From assembly GCA_045592905.1 (NCBI GenBank), contig JAZNVR010000001.1, positions 16,219 to 80,218 of the forward strand: a stretch of DNA of 64,000 bases, read 5' to 3'. Under the pieces are notes generated by a model. That model worked only from the letters and a program-made list of their open reading frames with translations, was not told the DNA's origin and searched no databases. Shown in pieces: positions 8,033 to 60,925 of this stretch; position 1 is the stretch's first letter, and every line of letters begins with the position of its first letter. The DNA comes from Candidatus Enterousia sp. Its GTDB lineage: Bacteria; Pseudomonadota; Alphaproteobacteria; Rs-D84. A program made the translations under genes and the position numbers.

Positions 8033-8062
8033 AAAAAAACGTCCCAAATGGGACGTTTTTTT
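8033..8062. terminator. bidirectional terminator hairpin
   Basis: A7-CGTCCCA-AAT-GGGACG-T7, directly 3' of the OMP gene on the minus strand. Confidence 0.6.
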
Positions 8063-8675
8063 AGAACATAAATCTGATACCTACATCTGCACCAAAATTA
8101 TGTAAACCCGATTCTATATCAACATATGTATATCGGGCAGCAACATCAACTGCGAAACGTTCCATATCAAATGTCATACCCAATGTACCCATTGCAGAAA
8201 CGCGTGTTTTGTTATCACTTTGTGCTGGTACCAATGCACCATAGTGTTCAACATCTGTAAACGCCATACCAACACCCAAACCTGCAAATGGACGTATCAT
8301 ATCATAAGAACCAAATTCCATATAGTTATTCCATAACAACGTTTGCATTTTAGCTTTTACATCAATTGTACCTGCTGGGCCAAAATCTGCTTGGTCTGAT
8401 GTTTTTCCGAAATAAGTCCATTCAATTTCAGAACGAACTGTATCGCAAACTTCTAAACCTAATGCTGCACGTCCTTGAAAAATAAAATCAGTAATAGATT
8501 CTTTATCGCCATTATATTTATAGTTCAAGTTTGTATAACTCATACCGCCTCTTAAACCAATGTATGGATCCATTCCCCACATTTGCCAAGAACTGCCCTG
8601 ATCTGGATGATTAATACCCGCAAATGCAGGACATGCCATCAACACTGCCAATGTTGAAATTACTATTTTTTTCAT
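8061..8675 (-). CDS. outer-membrane beta-barrel protein (OmpA-like 8-strand / porin family)
   Basis: Signal peptide and a beta-barrel with a C-terminal Phe (GIRFMF). Confidence 0.55.
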   Translation of the reverse strand: MKKIVISTLAVLMACPAFAGINHPDQGSSWQMWGMDPYIGLRGGMSYTNLNYKYNGDKESITDFIFQGRAALGLEVCDTVRSEIEWTYFGKTSDQADFGPAGTIDVKAKMQTLLWNNYMEFGSYDMIRPFAGLGVGMAFTDVEHYGALVPAQSDNKTRVSAMGTLGMTFDMERFAVDVAARYTYVDIESGLHNFGADVGIRFMF

Positions 8676-37313: not shown

Positions 37314-37340
37314 AAAATCCCCCAAACGGGGAATTTGTTA
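37312..37340. terminator. hairpin terminator between convergent genes
   Basis: TCCCC-AAAC-GGGGA followed by T-rich sequence. Confidence 0.45.
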
Positions 37341-38102
37341 TTTGTTATTCATCCAAGGATTATTCCATTGTGCATTTTGACTGCGTGCCTCATTATATAA
37401 TTTATTGATATTAGACCTATGATGATTCAAGCAACTCTGAAAATTTGCTTTTTTCCCCAAATAAGTTGTGCTTTTACAATTATTCAATGTATCACCCTTG
37501 CATGGGTCGTCTGTCTTGTCTGTACTTGGCATTGCATTACAAATTAACTCATAATCTTTGCCCAACTGCTTTTTCACCGCAGGAGTTGACGGCGATGTGC
37601 CATTACCAGACATATTATAAATTGTCGTATAATTTTCATTAAAACATTCTACCCGTTCCAGTGCATCCATTATTGAATTACAATCTTTGATACCGGTCAT
37701 AAAGATATTCATATTTGTTTGTTTGTACGAAGCATCAGAAGTATCTTCTCTGTTTTTACTGGCACCAGCGGCCTGCAAGTTTGTTGTTAAAACCGCTTTT
37801 TCAAGTTGTGTTTTGAATCGCCGCAACATAGATTCCATTTGTTCATAATGGCGATACATCTGTTGTGTTATCAATTCGGTTTTCATTGCGACAACATCAC
37901 GCATTAAATCACGTTCTGCAGACGTTGGGTTGCTTGTATTTCCAATATTATATGCATGCGTTGAACACAATGCGAATTCAGCCGCAATCGCATCATTATC
38001 ATCATTTTCACAACCATTATCTGCGAAAGTCGGCATAACAACAGCCATCAGCATTACACTGACCATCAAAATTTTAGCAAAGATTTCTTTTATTGTTTTC
38101 AT
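37338..38102 (-). CDS. secreted cysteine-containing hypothetical protein
   Basis: Signal peptide. 4-bp overlap with the upstream gene indicates an operon. Confidence 0.4.
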   Translation of the reverse strand: MKTIKEIFAKILMVSVMLMAVVMPTFADNGCENDDNDAIAAEFALCSTHAYNIGNTSNPTSAERDLMRDVVAMKTELITQQMYRHYEQMESMLRRFKTQLEKAVLTTNLQAAGASKNREDTSDASYKQTNMNIFMTGIKDCNSIMDALERVECFNENYTTIYNMSGNGTSPSTPAVKKQLGKDYELICNAMPSTDKTDDPCKGDTLNNCKSTTYLGKKANFQSCLNHHRSNINKLYNEARSQNAQWNNPWMNNK

Positions 38103-40102
38103 TTTTTTGGTTTTTGTAGAATTTTTTGCATCATATCACTTATTTTGTTTTTGTCTTCTACTGTTAGACTAGCGACACTTCCGGTTAATTTTGTTTCAAT
38201 TTTTCCTTCAACACACCAGTGTGTATTATAGTCTGTTATTACTTTATCATCACAATAACATTTACCATCACGATATTCACCCAGAGCAATAGTTTCACAC
38301 TGCCTTTGTTGTGCAGTATCTTGTTTTATTAACTTTTCCTTTTCTTTTATAGATCTAATTGACTCCCCATCCCAACAATAGTCACTGCTGGTAATCTTAC
38401 ATAACATTTCTTCATATCTACAATTAGTATTACTATCTGCACAACCCCAGTCAAGATCCGCATATGCATGCAATTCATCAATTTGATCACACGCAGCCTC
38501 ACTTACATAAATATATTTTGAACAATTATCTCTAAACACATAATCACCATAACCAATTACACCTTCGGTTGCAATATTACGATACAGGTCATCATATGAA
38601 ACACAAATGTTACTGGACGGTAATTTCTTTTGTGAAATTGCATTACGCAGACGTTCATATCCACGTGGTGTCAACGCACAATATTTTGTCTTTTCCAGTG
38701 CTGCATCATTCGCCCGGGGCATAAACCTATTATTGCCAGAATATTCCGGTGCATCTTGTAAAATCATACGTTCCAGGGTTTCTAAATCAACCGTCCTGTT
38801 TTTATTACTTTTTCTGCGTCCCAATACAGAAATTGATTCCAATGCCGATGTTGCACAGCCAACACGTATTAATTTTTCCCCATCATACGCTTCACTTAAC
38901 CAGTTACGTTCAACTGTATCTTCATCACTGTCCCCGGTAATAATACCAATTTGCGAACAACGAACATCATCTTGGGGTGGAATAATTTGATTTTTATGAC
39001 ATTCTTGGTTACCACGACTATATGTACCATTAACAACAGATTTTCCACCTACGCAGTCATCTTCATACTTTTTTGGTTGATGCTCAGTCGTGCCATCACC
39101 TGTGCACATATATTTTCCCCACTTGTTGCACGTTCCAGACAACATCATAATAACATCAGATATATCAACGCCAACCGCCAATGCTGTATCCAATGCATCA
39201 TACATTTCATCTGCAATCGCATCATATGGTTCAAAAAAACCCATTGCTTTTTCTTTGAATATTTTCACACGCTTTGGTCCGGTACAATTATTACCACGTG
39301 CATCACAACCCGCATATTGAAAAATATTATCCATTGTTCTTTTCAATTCTTTTAATTGTGCTTCGGCATTTTCAATAGAAGATAAAATTTGACCAGAAAC
39401 CTGTTGGCGTACCAATATATCTTCGGAAACACCAGAATCAATTGCGGCCTGTTGTGCAACGGTAACGCCCTGTGCCGTTTGTGCATCAATTTTTGCCTGT
39501 TGGGCAGCCGCAGCCTGGGCTTGGGCCTGGGCGACCAATGCCTTTTGTTCATCCAATGCCGCCTGCATAGATGCCATTTGTTGTGCATTTTGTTGTGCAT
39601 TTTGTTGCTGCAGTTGTGCCTGCATCTGTTGCATTTGTGCCTGCATTTGTTGCATTTGCTGACTGTTTTGTGCGGCGGCTGCCTGGGCCGCAGCAGTTTG
39701 AGCCGCCAATTGTTTCTCTTGAAATTTTGCATTAGCATTGGCAACAATCTGTGCAGCAATAGACTGCACCAATGTATCGCCATGCTTTTTACAATTTGTA
39801 TTTGAATTTACACAACCTTCTACAATTGGTTTCGCAATTTCCAAACTGGTACATGCACTGCATTTTGGTTGTGCACAACGCATAATCAACGCATCACAAT
39901 TTCCAAAATCTGCAGTTGGTGCCGCACCCCCACTGGCCAATGTGCGGTTGTTCATCAACGTATTCCAATTATTATTATTTGTTGCACCACTGTTACCATT
40001 CCATGCGGTTAAATTACTGCCCGCAGTGGTTGCAACATTTGCCCCAGAAACACATGGGACAAAAAACATCAGCAACAATAAAAATCGCTTAAAGTATTTC
40101 AT
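38099..40102 (-). CDS. secreted cysteine-rich protein with poly-Q/A coiled-coil tract
   Basis: Signal peptide MKYFKRFLLLLMFFVPCVSGA, more than 40 Cys, and a Gln/Ala repeat region. Confidence 0.45.
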   Translation of the reverse strand: MKYFKRFLLLLMFFVPCVSGANVATTAGSNLTAWNGNSGATNNNNWNTLMNNRTLASGGAAPTADFGNCDALIMRCAQPKCSACTSLEIAKPIVEGCVNSNTNCKKHGDTLVQSIAAQIVANANAKFQEKQLAAQTAAAQAAAAQNSQQMQQMQAQMQQMQAQLQQQNAQQNAQQMASMQAALDEQKALVAQAQAQAAAAQQAKIDAQTAQGVTVAQQAAIDSGVSEDILVRQQVSGQILSSIENAEAQLKELKRTMDNIFQYAGCDARGNNCTGPKRVKIFKEKAMGFFEPYDAIADEMYDALDTALAVGVDISDVIMMLSGTCNKWGKYMCTGDGTTEHQPKKYEDDCVGGKSVVNGTYSRGNQECHKNQIIPPQDDVRCSQIGIITGDSDEDTVERNWLSEAYDGEKLIRVGCATSALESISVLGRRKSNKNRTVDLETLERMILQDAPEYSGNNRFMPRANDAALEKTKYCALTPRGYERLRNAISQKKLPSSNICVSYDDLYRNIATEGVIGYGDYVFRDNCSKYIYVSEAACDQIDELHAYADLDWGCADSNTNCRYEEMLCKITSSDYCWDGESIRSIKEKEKLIKQDTAQQRQCETIALGEYRDGKCYCDDKVITDYNTHWCVEGKIETKLTGSVASLTVEDKNKISDMMQKILQKPKK
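39490..39720. repeat. imperfect short tandem repeats (CAG/CAA-rich) encoding the poly-Q/A tract
   Basis: Reiterated units tgcctgcatYtgttgcatttg / ttgttgtgcatt. Confidence 0.6.
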
Positions 40103-40159
40103 ATTCTCTCTATAAATAAAATTTTACCATATTTTAAGTTTATATAAAAGCAAAAAATG

Positions 40160-40327
40160 ATAAAAGTGGCGAGTGTAAATTGCCAGCACCACTTATAGAT
40201 GAATTATTATCCGCTAATTTAGAAATAAATTATAATGATTTAGATACGCAAAAACCCGAAACCGTAGTGTACAGACGTTACATAAGGGTTCGGATTTGTG
40301 TGTAGATGAATTATTATAATTTATTTA
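40160..40327. repeat. composite hairpin repeat element, copy A (two tandem units)
   Basis: Unit pattern is stem, loop containing (G)AGTGTA(A/C)A, stem, then AGATGAATTATTAT. It shares TAGATGAATTATTATAATTTATTTA, AATGATTTAGATAC and GTAGTGTACA with copy B at 54738-54916. It ends at the ftsK stop codon. Confidence 0.7.
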
Positions 40328-42580
40328 TAATATGTGGCGTTTGTTATTTGCATCCGGTGCAGACACAATACCATCTGCCTCCATCCGTTCCATAAAGCCC
40401 GCAGCCTTGTTATAACCAATTTGCAAGCGACGCTGAATATATGAAATTGTCGGCTTTTTATCACGTAAAACACATTCTTTGGCACGTGCATACAGGTCAC
40501 CATCTTTATCACCAGTTCCCCCACCAAATCCACCAGATATATCACCACCACCAGATTCCGCAGAATCTGTAACACCTTCGGCATATTCTGGTTCGCCCTG
40601 GGAACGCAAGAAATCACCAATACGTTTTAATTCCTTGTCGTCAATAAAGGCACCATGGATACGAACTGGGACACGTCCTGCCTCGCTAAACAACATATCG
40701 CCCATTGCCAACAGTTGTTCTGCACCACCTTCGCCCAGACATGTCACACTGTCAATACGGCTGCGTGCTTGAAAGGATATACGTGTTGGGAAATTCGCCT
40801 TGATAACACCGGTAATTGTTGTTGCGTCTGGGCGCTGGGTCGCCATAACAAGGTGAATACCGGCGGCACGTGCCTTTTGTGCAATACGTTGAACACACGC
40901 TTCTACATCCTTGCGGGCCAGACTCATCAGGTCTGCCACCTCGTCAATAATGATGACCATATATGGCATATCAGATAAATCAACTTCTTGGGTTTCAAAT
41001 AACAATTCCCCTGTTTCTGGATCAGTACCCACAGCAACTTGTTTTGTAACCTTTTCACCACTTTCACGTTTTTGTGCAGCAATTTCATTATAACTTTCAA
41101 TATTACGTGCATTTAATACCTGTAATTGTTTATATCTTTCTTCCATTTCACGTACAGCCCATTTCAATGCATTAACAGCTGGCTCTGGTTCCAACTTTAC
41201 AATTGGGGTAATCAAATGTGGAATATCATCCCAGAACCCAAAGTCAACACCCTTGGGGTCAATGATAATCAATTTACATTTATCAGGCGTAAAGTGATAA
41301 ACAATTGATGTAATAATTGATTGAACAAACACAGATTTACCAGACCCTGTACGCCCAGCCACCAACATATGCGGCATTTTTGCCAAATCAAAATACATCG
41401 GATTGCCACCGATATTAACACCCAAGGCCAATGGTATTTTATATTTTGATTCAACAAACAGTTCGTCTTCCATCAATCCACGATAACGCACCGTCTGACG
41501 TTTCAAGTTTACCATTTCAACGCCAATTAACTGTGTCTTTGGGATATGTGCAATACGAATACTTTCTGTTGCCATCGCACGTGTCATATCCGTAACAGTT
41601 TTATTAACATCCGCCATACGTGTTCCTTCGTCTGGCATAAATTCATACAATGTAACAATTGGTCCTGGTTTAATACCAACAACTTTGCCATGAACGCCAT
41701 ATTGCGAAAATTTTACTTCCATACTGCGGGCATTTTGTTTCAATTCTGGCGTTACAGAATATTTACTAAAATTAGAACGTTCCAAGAATTTAGTATCTGG
41801 TAATTCATACGCATTTGCACTGCGAACTTTTGGTAAACTGGTTGTAACTGCCACTTTCTTTTCCGTCTTGGCACTTTGTTTTTTCAACAAATTACGTTTC
41901 GTTTTTTCTTTGACTTTTTCTTCTGTTGGTTCGTCTGTTTTAACATTCGTTTCCGCAGAAGCGGCATACTTTACCAGACCAAATGCAGATGCCAACCAAC
42001 GCCCCCAACGTATAACAACCTTTATTCCCCAACGAATATGTTCTAATTTAACATGCAACAACATACCCGCCATAATAAAAAATCCCAACAAACATAAAAT
42101 ACCAACAATTATACATCCAACATTTCCAATCAACATAACAATATCAGCCGCAGCAACAGCCCCAAACATACCACCATATACAGATCCAGGAACAATTGCA
42201 CCAAACCCAATTGCACCCAAACACAATGCAACAAACGCACGTAACGCATTATATTCTGGGAAACTTTCTTCTAAATCTAGACCTAATGCCTTGGTTGCCC
42301 CCCATCGTATCAAACATAAAAAAACAAATAATCCTGGGATAACACCAATTGCATAGCGAACCATACCAACAAAATATCCCATAACAGACTGATTACCAAA
42401 ATTACCAGAAACATTAAAACCATCCAGATATGGGTTATACAACAACATCGCAAACGTTGCCCAAACAAACAATACAAACACAAACACACCCAATATGCGT
42501 TGTGCAAACTTCTTTAACGCCCCAGACAAACGTTCTGGCAAAAATCTTGACTTCCTTTTTCCTGTCATAATGATAGTCAT
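40325..42580 (-). CDS. ftsK: DNA translocase FtsK
   Basis: N-terminal TM segments, Walker A motif GRTGSGKS, and a C-terminal gamma winged-helix domain. Confidence 0.9.
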   Translation of the reverse strand: MTIIMTGKRKSRFLPERLSGALKKFAQRILGVFVFVLFVWATFAMLLYNPYLDGFNVSGNFGNQSVMGYFVGMVRYAIGVIPGLFVFLCLIRWGATKALGLDLEESFPEYNALRAFVALCLGAIGFGAIVPGSVYGGMFGAVAAADIVMLIGNVGCIIVGILCLLGFFIMAGMLLHVKLEHIRWGIKVVIRWGRWLASAFGLVKYAASAETNVKTDEPTEEKVKEKTKRNLLKKQSAKTEKKVAVTTSLPKVRSANAYELPDTKFLERSNFSKYSVTPELKQNARSMEVKFSQYGVHGKVVGIKPGPIVTLYEFMPDEGTRMADVNKTVTDMTRAMATESIRIAHIPKTQLIGVEMVNLKRQTVRYRGLMEDELFVESKYKIPLALGVNIGGNPMYFDLAKMPHMLVAGRTGSGKSVFVQSIITSIVYHFTPDKCKLIIIDPKGVDFGFWDDIPHLITPIVKLEPEPAVNALKWAVREMEERYKQLQVLNARNIESYNEIAAQKRESGEKVTKQVAVGTDPETGELLFETQEVDLSDMPYMVIIIDEVADLMSLARKDVEACVQRIAQKARAAGIHLVMATQRPDATTITGVIKANFPTRISFQARSRIDSVTCLGEGGAEQLLAMGDMLFSEAGRVPVRIHGAFIDDKELKRIGDFLRSQGEPEYAEGVTDSAESGGGDISGGFGGGTGDKDGDLYARAKECVLRDKKPTISYIQRRLQIGYNKAAGFMERMEADGIVSAPDANNKRHIL

Positions 42581-53912: not shown

Positions 53913-53985
53913 ACATAAAATTCAATATCCCTGTTACCACACAGGGATATTGTAAAAACATCCAGAACGAGAGAGAGAAGTCATA

Positions 53986-54723
53986 ATGCATAAAATATTA
54001 TCTACGTTTTTAATCAGTGCTTTTATTGCCTTGCCTGTGTCATCATATGCAAATCAACTGGAACACGACACATCAGATCCACTTTATCTGTTGGCCCAAG
54101 AAGAAATATTAAGTCAAACATCTATATCTTATTGGAATCACATGCTGCGTATTGGCCAAGGCCTTTCATATGGAATGAACGAACGCCTGTCTATTGGTGC
54201 AAACATTCATTATCAACATCACTTTAACGGCAATCAAGATGGATTTTCTGCAATTGATTTGGGTGCAACATATCGTATGACACGTGCAAGCGATACAGAT
54301 TCACATATGATTTCAGACCTGTTGTTCGGATTTAAGTTTGGCGGCAGTTCACATGTACGCACACCATATTATGCAGATTCAACATATTATGCAGGTATTC
54401 GTTTTGGTCGTCAATGGGCCGGGTTAACATTGGCAGCAACCGTAAAATCCAGTTGGGTTTTTGATGAAACACGTGGCATGTCATTTATTGATTTTATGCC
54501 AGAAGCATATTTTAGAATTGCCCCAGATTGGCGTATTGGTGGTGGCTTTACAATTCGCAAAGCAACCAACAACGACCCACAAACAGGCGATGATTATGAC
54601 CAAGAATGGTTGCATACGAAACTTGTACGCCAATATGGTCGCACACAATATATCGGACATATTGACTATGAATTTGAAAGCGACGAAATACAACTGGGCG
54701 GAAAAGTAAATATTGTATTTTAA
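53986..54723 (+). CDS. outer-membrane beta-barrel protein
   Basis: Signal peptide. Ends in NIVF. Confidence 0.5.
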   Translation: MHKILSTFLISAFIALPVSSYANQLEHDTSDPLYLLAQEEILSQTSISYWNHMLRIGQGLSYGMNERLSIGANIHYQHHFNGNQDGFSAIDLGATYRMTRASDTDSHMISDLLFGFKFGGSSHVRTPYYADSTYYAGIRFGRQWAGLTLAATVKSSWVFDETRGMSFIDFMPEAYFRIAPDWRIGGGFTIRKATNNDPQTGDDYDQEWLHTKLVRQYGRTQYIGHIDYEFESDEIQLGGKVNIVF

Positions 54724-54737
54724 ACAAAAGAAAAAAA

Positions 54738-54916
54738 CGATGGCGTAGTGTAACGTGATATTACACAAGCCATCGTAACCATCCACAGATGAATTATCAT
54801 CCGATAAATAAAATAAATTAGAATGATTTAGATACAAGTAATGCCGACAGTGTAGTGTACATAACGCTACATGAACTGTCGGCACCGCTTGTAGATGAAT
54901 TATTATAATTTATTTA
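54738..54916. repeat. composite hairpin repeat element, copy B (two tandem units)
   Basis: Unit 1 is CGATGGC[GTAGTGTAACGTGATATTACACAA]GCCATCG plus CAGATGAATTATCAT. Unit 2 is GCCGACAGT[GTAGTGTACATAACGCTACATGAA]ACTGTCGGC plus GTAGATGAATTATTATAATTTATTTA. It overlaps the last 4 codons and the stop of trxB. Confidence 0.7.
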
Positions 54917-55799
54917 AGTATGCGATTGCATCCATACCTGCACTGCACCCTGTTCCAACAGCTGTTGCAATTTGCATTTTTAAATCACTATGCACATCAC
55001 CGGCAACAAACATACCATCTGGTAATGCGGTTGGTGCCAAACGCCCCAACCCATCACGTTTAATTTCTTCGGATAAAAAGTCAGTATTCGCCTCGTGTCC
55101 AATTGCGACAAAAACACCATCAACAATTATTTGTTCGCCACTTGTTGTTGTAACAACCAATTCGCCATCTGACGAATCTGGCTTTTCAGCGATTTCTGCC
55201 AAATCTGTATTAAACAAACATTTAATATTTTCACGTTCTGCAACACGATCACGCAAAACTGCTTCGGCCCGGAAAAATTCAGACTTACGATAAACGATTT
55301 TAACTTCTTTTGCCAAGTCTGCCAAATACAACGCATCATTTAACGCACTGTTTCCGCCCCCCATAACAATAACTGTTTTACCACTATAAAAGAACCCATC
55401 ACATGTCGCACAATACGAAACACCACGTCCCATTAACTCACGTGCACCTGTTATCTCCAACTTTCGTGGACTGGCACCAGTTGCAACAATAACTGTTTTA
55501 CCAACATATTCTTTGTTGTTTGCAGTAACGACAAAAACACCATCTGAATTTTTTTCAACATTTGTCGCAACAACAAATTCAACTGTTGCCCCAAATGTTT
55601 CTGCCTGATTTTTCATAAATTCGGCCAGTTCTGCCCCACTGCCAGCCCAACCCGGATAATTTTCCAGCGTGGCAATTCCAGCCATTTGACCACCCAACCT
55701 GTCGCCACCCAAAACAATTGTTTTTTTATTTGCACGTGCCGCATACAACGCTGCCGTTAATCCAGCAGGTCCAGAGCCTAAAATAATTACATCATACAT
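54903..55799 (-). CDS. trxB: thioredoxin-disulfide reductase
   Basis: FAD/NAD(P) motifs and the redox-active CATCDG. Confidence 0.85.
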   Translation of the reverse strand: MYDVIILGSGPAGLTAALYAARANKKTIVLGGDRLGGQMAGIATLENYPGWAGSGAELAEFMKNQAETFGATVEFVVATNVEKNSDGVFVVTANNKEYVGKTVIVATGASPRKLEITGARELMGRGVSYCATCDGFFYSGKTVIVMGGGNSALNDALYLADLAKEVKIVYRKSEFFRAEAVLRDRVAERENIKCLFNTDLAEIAEKPDSSDGELVVTTTSGEQIIVDGVFVAIGHEANTDFLSEEIKRDGLGRLAPTALPDGMFVAGDVHSDLKMQIATAVGTGCSAGMDAIAYLNKL

Positions 55800-56051
55800 T
55801 TTGCTTTTCTTCCTTTTTACTTGGGGTCAATATAACAAAATAAACAATACTACACAACCAAAATAATCATAAATTAAACAAGTTGAAAAAAAACTAAGAA
55901 CAATCTATAATTCACTGTGTTATGACATTAATTTATATATTTTTTAGTTTATCTTCATCCCCATTGGGGGAATAGTTTTTATGCAATTTCTTTACAAACA
56001 TTACAAACCGTTATAAAATACAATCCAAATCTATGAAAAAGGAAACAAATT

Positions 56052-57404: not shown

Positions 57405-57438
57405 ACTAAAAAAACTCCCATCTGGGAGTTTTTTTTAT
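57405..57438. terminator. bidirectional rho-independent terminator
   Basis: A7-CTCCCA-TC-TGGGAG-T8, between convergent genes. Confidence 0.7.
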
Positions 57439-60895: not shown

Positions 60896-60925
60896 AGAAA
60901 ACTGCCAATACGGCAGTTTTTTTTA
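60896..60925. terminator. bidirectional terminator
   Basis: AAACTGCC-AATAC-GGCAG-T8. Confidence 0.65.

Follow-up and report, generated by a model that had tools for sequence, protein, structure and literature searches.

REPINs combine conserved ends with a variable spacer that undergoes compensatory changes (PMC3116915), and insertion sequences of the IS200/IS605 family insert at the lagging-strand template, to which their strong orientation bias relative to replication is attributed (PMC6006769). Here we describe a palindromic element present as two copies, A and B, in a 64,000-nt stretch of DNA (the window) from Candidatus Enterousia sp., a genus of the order Rs-D84 with genomes of ~0.75–1.0 Mb (PMC12306168). 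Copy A abuts the stop codon of ftsK, copy B overlaps the end of a TrxB-like gene, and both are members of a lineage-specific family of non-coding palindromic repeats carried by Candidatus Enterousia and related gut Alphaproteobacteria. Read on the window + strand, which we use as the reference for the reading direction of the unit (E+), a unit spans ~105–107 nt and consists of the left terminus AAATAAATTAGAATGATTTAGAT, an arm of 17–19 nt, the apex GTAGTGTACAnACGCTACATGA, the complementary arm and the right terminus AGATGAATTATTATAATTTATTT. It forms a long imperfect hairpin made up of A/T-rich inverted termini, an AGAT/AGAT internal loop, a hypervariable stem of 17–19 bp and an asymmetric apex of 22 nt.

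The resemblance to REPINs is considerable: the units are extragenic hairpins of ~100 nt, form tandem clusters, persist for long at orthologous sites, comprise several subfamilies per genome, and likewise have conserved inverted ends around a variable spacer kept paired by compensatory change (PMC3116915). REP sequences are defined by a GT[AG]G motif 0–2 nt 5′ of a hairpin whose basal stem is fully paired over 7–20 nt (PMC6006769). By contrast, neither the termini nor the foot of the main hairpin has a GT[AG]G here, GTAG being found only at the 5′ edge of the apex (+ strand), either within a 7-bp apical stem or before a 4–5-bp TGTA/TACA stem. The units further differ in that their asymmetric conserved 22-nt apex has no REPIN counterpart, in that their host is an uncultured alphaproteobacterium with a reduced genome, and in that no RAYT was found by tblastn in 1.3 Mb of element-bearing loci. 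Placement on stop codons and near-absolute polarity relative to replication, both of which characterise the units, do not feature for REPINs in the available sections of PMC3116915 and PMC6006769. With IS200/IS605 elements the units share the orientation bias and the reliance on hairpins as opposed to sequence-identical inverted repeats; IS200/IS605 elements make no target-site duplication, and none was visible here between filled and empty orthologs. Those elements, however, have subterminal left and right hairpins and a fixed target of 4–5 nt, whereas here one hairpin spans the unit and the 5′ flank is a stop-codon context (TAA and a run of A) with no fixed tetranucleotide; neither tnpA nor tnpB was detected, and the strand that folds better is the template for leading-strand and not for lagging-strand synthesis.

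The units are like attC sites in conserving structure while sequence varies, in lying directly after an open reading frame (ORF) and often overlapping its stop codon, in folding asymmetrically with respect to strand, and in having the favoured strand on the leading-strand template (PMC5371416). They differ in lacking R″/R′ cores and any GTT-containing core in either terminus, and in being dispersed behind efp, ftsK, trxB, dnaA, dnaN, secB, clpB and fabF instead of forming a cassette array; moreover, attC sites have a conserved base and a variable tip, whereas in these units the tip is conserved too. Correia/NEMIS elements of Neisseria and miniature inverted-repeat transposable elements (MITEs) of the ERIC and RUP type are palindromes of ~100–150 bp with terminal inverted repeats, are found at gene ends, are co-transcribed and carry −10-like hexamers in their ends, and the units resemble them in size, terminal inverted repeats, gene-end location and −10-like hexamers. 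Those elements, however, are conserved over their full length, duplicate a TA and occur in either orientation, whereas the units have a hypervariable interior, no visible duplication and a fixed orientation. Presence/absence polymorphism at orthologous sites, a MITE trait, does occur here: three sites have empty orthologs, and unit number differs between flanks that are 97% identical; no full-length insertion sequence with the same termini was found in the 8-kb pieces of DNA that we examined around matches to the family. Rickettsia palindromic elements (RPEs), too, are a palindromic repeat family in a reduced-genome alphaproteobacterium and can add codons to host genes, just as the units provide four codons at the end of the TrxB-like gene and, in other genes, the final codon and the stop, but RPEs lie in frame inside ORFs and are translated, whereas here only the last 0–4 codons are affected and there is no sequence similarity. 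Canonical bidirectional intrinsic terminators are found in the same niche, empty orthologous sites among them, and their layout of A-tract, G+C stem and T-tract recurs in one stem class (AAAAACAAATCGGGAATC ... GATTCCCGATTTGTTTTT); the units are set apart from them by the structured 22-nt apex, by conserved extensions of ~24 nt on each side, and by the absence of an adjacent U tract in most stem classes. The initial annotation of the window had proposed a REP/BIME-, Correia-, RPE- or attC-like element, which was right as to the general kind, but membership in the REP, Correia, RPE or attC families fails on their defining features.

Results

Family range and covariation of the stem

A pattern scan for GTAGTGTA-N5-12-TACA-N14-34-AGATGAATTATYAT, with one genome per species, yielded at least 117 stretches in at least 45 species-level metagenome-assembled genomes (MAGs), and among the matches listed every MAG was labelled either Candidatus Enterousia or uncultured gut alphaproteobacterium, the samples being from the gut of ruminants and other sources of gut material. 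Within 899 kb of element-bearing loci, an nhmmer profile built from 122 distinct units identified 137 arrays with 216 non-overlapping units in all. Of these arrays, 75 consist of one unit, 49 of two and 13 of three to five; they represent 31 orthologous sites that are mutually non-homologous. A second, independent set came from metagenome contigs probed with the apex alone (CATGTAGCG-N2-4-TGTACACTAC, other strand); this gave 69 stretches, three of which were chance matches and 66 of which were true family stretches with many different termini. Searches of IMG/VR viral contigs, PLSDB plasmids and INPHARED phages returned no family match, only one chance A/T-rich match, and Rfam returned only tRNAs and noise, both for the whole window at the gathering threshold and for the locus at E ≤ 10. 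Of 16 papers naming Enterousia, none had a listed title or abstract on repeats, and the word 'repeat' is absent from the one paper checked for it. The suggestion of an undescribed hairpin family was thus borne out, and further copies proved to number in the hundreds.

Pairing of the variable stem is maintained through full replacement of its sequence. Among 121 units there are 71 distinct 5′ arms, and in the RNAalifold structure 17 of 22 pairs show compensatory changes on both sides. Standard pairs were found in 95.9% of cells, compared with 73.1% when partners were shuffled and 30–49% when partners were slid by 1–3 columns; double-change cells numbered 749 against 243 expected and the covariation score was 0.679 against 0.242, with none of 500 shuffles reaching either value. 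These covariation figures are inflated by related copies, but the controls with slid partners, together with some ten stem classes that are unrelated to one another, keep the conclusion safe. The claim, first made from the two copies in the window, that the stem covaries with pairing kept and is therefore structure-constrained is upheld by these data, and the structure-preserving covariation in the alignment contradicts the idea of a mere recent segmental duplication.

The termini are 23 nt long, and with ~18 of 23 positions complementary they constitute terminal inverted repeats. The left terminus is more than 90% conserved in the 122 units, though absent from the search pattern, and the outer octamers covary (AATAAATT/AATTTATT, AATTAAAT/ATTTAATT, AATCAATT/AATTGATT, AACGAATT/AATTCGTT and AAATAAAT/ATTTATTT). 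Divergent members from the apex-only set keep the same plan, with an A/T helix, an ATAAT/ATTCT element, a covarying 5-nt block, ATCT on both sides of the stem, the stem itself and the apex. Judged by sequence comparison, the apex is the most deeply conserved part of the unit; the depth of its conservation can be seen only in the apex-probed set, because the first set was selected for the apex. The hairpin and conserved tail of the initial annotation are therefore present, but as parts of a far longer palindrome in which the apex, and not the tail, is conserved most deeply. An origin of helix I, at the termini, from the end of the gene was ruled out, since helix-I variants differ at the same site between species. 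Likenesses to IHF, Fur, dif/Xer and LacI-type operator sites and to k-turns were compared by eye, and none was convincing.

Copies A and B in the window

The ftsK ORF (40325–42580, − strand), which encodes FtsK alpha, motor and gamma domains according to Pfam, ends in a TAA whose complement is at 40325–40327, and the next − strand ORF starts at 40102, leaving a spacer of 222 bp. The window has exactly four occurrences of the 14-mer AGATGAATTATYAT (at 40197, 40304, 54787 and 54893), all of them in copies A and B. In agreement with the initial annotation, which had noted the loop and tail again at 54738–54916 around a different stem, the two copies are 81% identical over ~190 nt, with conserved termini, flanks and loop and with unrelated stems. 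Copy A had been described as two tandem units; its sequence and coordinates are as given, but the units are unequal, one being complete (40223–40327) and the other a degenerate half-unit (40164–40222) that has lost the distal terminus and part of the loop, which is shortened. Copy B has the same layout, with a full unit at 54811–54915 and a half-unit at 54738–54810. The full unit of copy A is an imperfect palindrome with 48-nt arms that are 79% complementary; its stem CCGAAACC/GGGTTCGG contains a single A.G mismatch, and the right terminus AGATGAATTATTATAATTTATTT is the inverted partner of AAATAAATTATAATGATTTAGAT across the stem. RNA folds of both loci were far better than those of shuffled sequences (z = −4.5 and −9.9), as were DNA folds of both strands (z from −4.4 to −11.6). 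The features of the two copies are as follows.

40223–40327, + strand folds better (− is the ftsK strand): copy A full unit, inverted repeat; nhmmer 40327–40222, E = 6.7e-24
40223–40245, +: copy A left terminus AAATAAATTATAATGATTTAGAT, with helices I and II and AGAT at its end
40246–40263, +: copy A variable stem, left arm ACGCAAAAACCCGAAACC, pairing with 40286–40303
40264–40285, +: copy A apex GTAGTGTACAGACGTTACATAA, a short apical stem and a 3′ ATAA/ATGA bulge
40286–40303, +: copy A variable stem, right arm GGGTTCGGATTTGTGTGT, from sequence and RNA/DNA folds
40304–40326, +: copy A right terminus AGATGAATTATTATAATTTATTT, its end overlapping the ftsK stop at 40325–40327 (−)
40164–40222, +: copy A degenerate half-unit; partial nhmmer match 40220–40178, model positions 3–45
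40164–40171/40187–40194, +: copy A half-unit hairpin with shortened apex GAGTGTAAA
40197–40210 and 40211–40222, +: copy A half-unit tail AGATGAATTATTAT and linker CCGCTAATTTAG, from sequence
40146–40163, −: U-rich run UUUUAUCAUUUUUUGCUUUU, immediately 3′ of the copy A half-unit hairpin
54811–54915, +: copy B full unit; nhmmer 54916–54810, E = 2.3e-27, and folds
54811–54833, 54834–54851 and 54852–54874, +: copy B left terminus, left arm and apex
54875–54892 and 54893–54915, +: copy B right arm and right terminus
54738–54810, +: copy B distal half-unit; nhmmer 54805–54703, E = 5e-10, and fold
54738–54744/54769–54775 and 54745–54768, +: copy B half-unit stem and apex variant GTAGTGTAACGTGATATTACACAA, from fold
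54787–54800, +: copy B half-unit tail AGATGAATTATCAT, followed by the linker
54724–54737, −: run containing U7, directly 3′ of the copy B distal hairpin

The U-rich run at 40146–40163 is a possible termination point for ftsK transcripts, and with its distal hairpin and U7 run the TrxB-like transcript would have an end resembling an intrinsic terminator. A promoter-like site with an extended −10 (TTTATA-16-TG-TAAAAT) lies at 40121–40148 (−), 19 nt upstream of the start of a 667-aa ORF; this is directly downstream of the copy A half-unit, so that the end of the array is the start of the next gene's promoter.

Placement at gene ends

That the element abuts and supplies the ftsK stop codon, as initially noted, was confirmed by the overlap of the TAA complement at 40325–40327 with the terminus, and the same placement holds family-wide. 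We call G the strand whose gene runs into the right terminus; in 126 of 127 assessable arrays, the array begins where an ORF of 80 or more codons on this strand ends. For 103 of the 129 pattern hits the stop codon of such an ORF falls −4 to +19 nt from the ATRATAATTCATCT motif; most of the other 26 seem to be truncated loci or units from the interior of an array. The stop codon is TAA in 94 of the 103 cases, and in 31 of them the TAA lies within the conserved terminus (26 inside AAATAAATT and 5 deeper). The TrxB-like gene in the window also ends inside the element:

54903–54905, −: stop codon of the TrxB-like gene (54903–55826; Pfam Pyr_redox_2), C-terminus ...AIAYLNKL, distance class −4

The gene thus runs 12 nt into the element, which provides both its four final codons (L-N-K-L) and its stop, and five other species show the same arrangement at their orthologous site.

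On their far side, 64 of 122 arrays lead to the start of a co-directional gene, and the other 58 meet a convergent gene that has its stop codon at −21 to +42 nt relative to the array edge; for comparison, only 9 of the 37 − strand genes in the window have a convergent neighbour. The genes before arrays include, by their C-terminal sequences, what we take to be efp, a yebC-like gene, secB, clpB, dnaN, dnaA, fabF and a secretin gene, with the FtsK and TrxB-like identities confirmed by Pfam, as well as two paralogous families of secreted or surface proteins. One of these is a family of small Cys-rich proteins ending in ...CCP..DCFPPIK, each followed by a repeat (L114, L056, L011, L078), and the other a family of large proteins ending in ...PGYTFTGWK(L/V)VE, again each followed by a repeat (L058, L097, L014, L033, L108); the loci of the large-protein family, which are often at contig ends, are the only ones where the repeat may be on the side of a lagging-strand gene. 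At L082 (1415–4234) a 3-kb stretch has a unit behind every one of three successive genes, including dnaN, which resembles a cassette array of housekeeping genes. Elsewhere in the window, near-identical canonical bidirectional terminators, each with an A-run, a G+C stem of 6–7 bp and a T-run, are present at the convergent junctions 8036–8063, 57410–57437 and 60898–60925, a niche that is the same as that of copy B.

Polarity relative to replication

None of the 66 loci with more than one hit was of mixed strand, and every contig sampled at two or more places showed a single orientation. Within the window, the GC skew of the + strand is ~−0.28 in − strand genes and ~0 in + strand genes, corresponding to coding and replication effects of ~0.14 each, and this asymmetry in composition indicates that the whole window is on one replichore with the − strand leading. 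The − strand also carries 37 of the 56 long ORFs and both tRNA genes. Over the loci as a whole, coding-strand GC skew was 0.23 for genes on the G strand and −0.08 for genes on the other strand, with the value for G the higher of the two in 101 of 104 loci. G was the leading strand at 28 of 29 independent orthologous sites (binomial p = 3e-5 against the 63% of genes on the leading strand), the single exception being a multi-copy surface-protein family. In the apex-probed independent set all 46 of 46 loci agreed, including loci with most ORFs on the other strand. Genes on the lagging strand make up ~37% in the loci, and none carries a flipped unit.

Strand asymmetry of folding

Folded as RNA, whole units had a mean energy of −46.6 kcal/mol on E+ and −34.3 kcal/mol on the other strand, E+ having the lower energy in 119 of 122 units and G.U pairs numbering 455 against 94. 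DNA parameters gave the same direction for copies A and B (−21.0 and −27.6 kcal/mol on E+, −14.7 and −20.4 kcal/mol on the other strand). The variable stem alone shows no such asymmetry (−25.0 against −25.2 kcal/mol; 71 against 75 G.U pairs), so the difference between strands comes from fixed positions of the termini and apex. These positions are two wobble pairs in helix II, a tandem G.A/A.G in UAGAU/AGAUG that becomes U.C/C.U on the other strand, and a U.G pair in the 7-bp apical stem GUAGUGU/ACGCUAC. Furthermore, several terminus variants are fully paired only on E+, with the blocks GGCAT/ATACC, GGGGC/ACCGCC and GGGGT/ACCACC. E+ was also lower in 61 of 67 units of the second set, and the outer helices in 54 of 67, although the most divergent terminus classes showed no strand asymmetry. 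From this we conclude, at moderate confidence, that there is selection for paired outer helices on E+, a strand that is antisense to the abutting gene and lies on the leading-strand template. A mutation bias of the kind that underlies GC skew was ruled out as the cause, since C-to-T change on the exposed strand would favour wobbles on the opposite strand. Nor is the asymmetry independent evidence for each copy, given that the variable stem is symmetric; it counts only once per independent terminus variant.

Turnover of units at stable sites

At empty orthologous sites an ordinary intrinsic terminator directly follows the stop codon in four cases (L066, L042, L053, L012) and nothing does in two (L114, L075); at filled sites a canonical terminator is kept after the element in L082, L072 and L020 and lost in L039. 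The comparison of filled and empty sites thus places the element between the stop codon and the terminator, i.e. in the 3′ untranslated region (UTR).

From species to species the sites are retained, and what is exchanged is the stem cassette within them. In L088 and L004 the flanks are 97% identical and the termini and apex identical, both arms are completely different, and L088 has one unit more. Stems were unrelated in 6 of 19 ortholog pairs with flank identity of at least 93% and in ~80% of pairs below 88%, and the apex was ~90% identical across all classes of flank identity. The idea that the stems are each site's native terminator is ruled out by these unrelated stems within 97%-identical flanks. 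Copies are homogenised within a genome: when unit pairs with stems at least 85% identical were tallied, similar stems made up 35% of pairs from the same genome but different sites, 19% of pairs from the same site in different genomes, and 9.6% of the background, in which both differed. One MAG has the stem AAAAACAAATCGGGCATC at four sites, and another has GTGGACGGTCCCGATGGC at four.

Deletions and chimeras arise through crossover in the apex. Comparison of L003 (3570–3675) with L040 (480–680) revealed a deletion between neighbouring units whose junction is mid-apex, leaving a unit with mismatched arms, and 3 of the 129 pattern hits (L073, L043, L060) are chimeric units with arms from different stem classes, a rarity that suggests loss of unpaired units. 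Taken together, stable sites, fast turnover of the interior and likeness within genomes are less well explained by frequent insertion at new sites than by gene conversion, or precise re-insertion, among the copies.

Discussion

The reading that we favour, and to which we would give about an even chance, is that the element is a persistent, REPIN/MITE-like, non-autonomous repeat that is homogenised within genomes, resides in 3′ UTRs and probably serves as an RNA 3′ hairpin or terminator. Units would have been seeded by a single-strand process coupled to the replication fork, which would explain their polarity; insertion into single-stranded DNA at the fork, as in IS200/IS605 elements (PMC6006769), is the sole well-documented cause of such polarity in small mobile DNA. 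The likeness of copies would now be kept up mainly by intragenomic gene conversion or re-insertion. Because the units lie in 3′ UTRs, they would be co-transcribed with the upstream gene, and the G+C-rich stem would then act as a 3′ hairpin, either a terminator or a block to exonucleases, a service that could explain their survival under strong deletion pressure. The high occupancy of sites in genomes that are 90% coding speaks for units that are either useful or able to preserve themselves. It is plausible that they act as 3′ hairpins or terminators, in that the niche is shared with canonical terminators and both arrays in the window end, on the gene strand, in a hairpin and a U-rich run.

Several observations weigh against this reading. 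The outer helices and apex pair better in the antisense direction to the gene, which a simple role in the 3′ UTR of the mRNA does not explain, and the polarity could stem from selection and not from the mode of insertion. High occupancy of sites across species would equally fit a purely host-selected motif. No target-site duplication was visible between filled and empty orthologs, in a comparison in which species are 75–90% identical and A/T-rich ends blur the boundaries, and no clean insertion or excision between very close relatives was seen among the same orthologs. A tblastn search for Y1 transposases in the 899 + 410 kb of element-bearing loci, using IS608 TnpA and the E. coli RAYT as queries, gave only noise, with no E better than 0.06. 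Lastly, the units do not match a consensus intrinsic terminator, as the loop is too long and most stem types are without an adjacent U tract, and scans for consensus terminators and promoters found nothing above shuffles and called no terminator at either locus in the window.

The strand asymmetry could also be accounted for if the units were not a mobile element but a host-encoded polar terminator or insulator RNA module, which we consider unlikely. The antisense RNA would be a continuous hairpin of ~45 bp leading into a U-rich 3′ arm, and would halt transcription that opposes replication, whether it comes from a convergent gene on the lagging strand or from an antisense promoter, before it reaches the leading-strand gene. 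Sense RNA would form the inner stem alone, and read-through or termination would be set by what comes next. Such a module is consistent with the recurrence of strong asymmetry, through G.U wobbles and tandem G.A, in several independently covarying terminus variants, with convergent genes flanking 58 of 122 arrays compared with 9 of 37 − strand gene ends in the window, with canonical bidirectional terminators filling the same niche at other convergent junctions of the window, with the terminators at empty orthologous sites, and with the persistence of sites in reduced genomes of ~90% coding density. However, antisense transcripts are not to be expected at the 64 of 122 arrays that precede a co-directional gene, the variable stem is free of asymmetry (71 against 75 G.U pairs), and lagging-strand genes that end beside co-directional neighbours never have a flipped copy; moreover, a selected motif alone leaves the wholesale replacement of stems, the homogenisation within genomes and the tandem arrays unexplained. 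We are quite doubtful, too, that the unit is a folded single-stranded-DNA site for a structure-specific enzyme of the attC/integrase kind or an HUH nickase, for which the apex and AGAT/AGAT loop would be the features recognised or cleaved, the variable stem would matter only as a helix, and a better-folding strand on the leading-strand template would limit unscheduled folding. Structure kept while sequence is free is the hallmark of attC, the apex is the most deeply conserved part, crossovers map within it and arm-swapped chimeras exist, units directly follow ORFs as attC sites follow cassettes, and the better-folding strand is always the leading-strand template, as are attC bottom strands in 25 of 30 sedentary integrons (PMC5371416). 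Yet the GTTRRRY/RYYYAAC core is absent, the flanking genes are dispersed housekeeping genes (efp, ftsK, trxB, dnaA, dnaN, secB, fabF) and not cassette arrays, tblastn found no Y1-type HUH gene in 1.3 Mb (integrase genes were not searched for), and crossovers in the apex can be explained by homologous recombination over ~22 identical bases. More specifically, it seems rather improbable that a host or domesticated enzyme reads the apex and AGAT/AGAT loop on the leading-strand-template strand and swaps stem cassettes between sites; if true, this would mean attC- or HUH-like recombination operating genome-wide at the 3′ ends of core genes, in genomes below 1 Mb with no recognisable mobile-element machinery.

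We see very little likelihood that each unit is a small RNA gene with its own promoter (TATAAT on the gene strand, TAGAAT on the other) that ends in the hairpin and a U tail. Although each strand has −10-like hexamers at 7–10 nt from the base of the variable stem, and tandem arrays are reminiscent of multicopy small RNA loci, there is no conserved −35, the promoter scan was not above shuffles, and the hexamer is missing from divergent terminus classes in which the apex is retained. Transcription starting downstream of the hexamer would also exclude the termini from the RNA, and yet the termini covary, and Rfam gave no match. As for chance likeness or a recent segmental duplication limited to this genome, only the low complexity of the A/T-rich termini points that way, and hundreds of copies, at least 45 species, 31 non-homologous sites and covariation leave it virtually no probability.

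Reduced genomes are expected to shed repeats, and these gut Alphaproteobacteria with genomes of ~0.75–1.0 Mb have retained the family at the same gene ends in at least 45 species while its interior was exchanged. Three traits of the family are unusually clean: a stem of free sequence under a conserved apex, the placement on or supply of stop codons, and the near-absolute co-orientation with replication. The family is therefore a natural system for asking how palindromic repeats persist and homogenise with no obvious transposase, and whether polarity reflects the mode of insertion or selection on hairpins at the replication fork. In practical terms, the units mark the leading strand, and hence the replichore, on MAG contigs, and they account for some assembly breaks.

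Other observations on arrays and neighbouring genes

The ORFs beside the repeats at 38099–40102 (−, 667 aa), 53956–54723 (+, 255 aa) and 37338–38102 (−, 254 aa) had no Pfam match at E ≤ 0.001; the first of these is the gene that the initial annotation called a secreted poly-Q protein. At L093 (4408–4540) and L144 (5630–5750) a hairpin with the family apex has termini unlike the consensus, and the same site holds a degenerate standard unit in another species and nothing in two others. A second type of linker, CCGCTAATCACGAACAATGTTTTTTTGTT, is found in the metagenome arrays L137, L168 and L177. In the inner units of longer arrays (L031, 730–1023; L103, 7234–7530) the gene-proximal terminus is swapped for the conserved module TACGCATCTGATGTGCTGTGTG, and only the inner ~10 bp of the stem pair.

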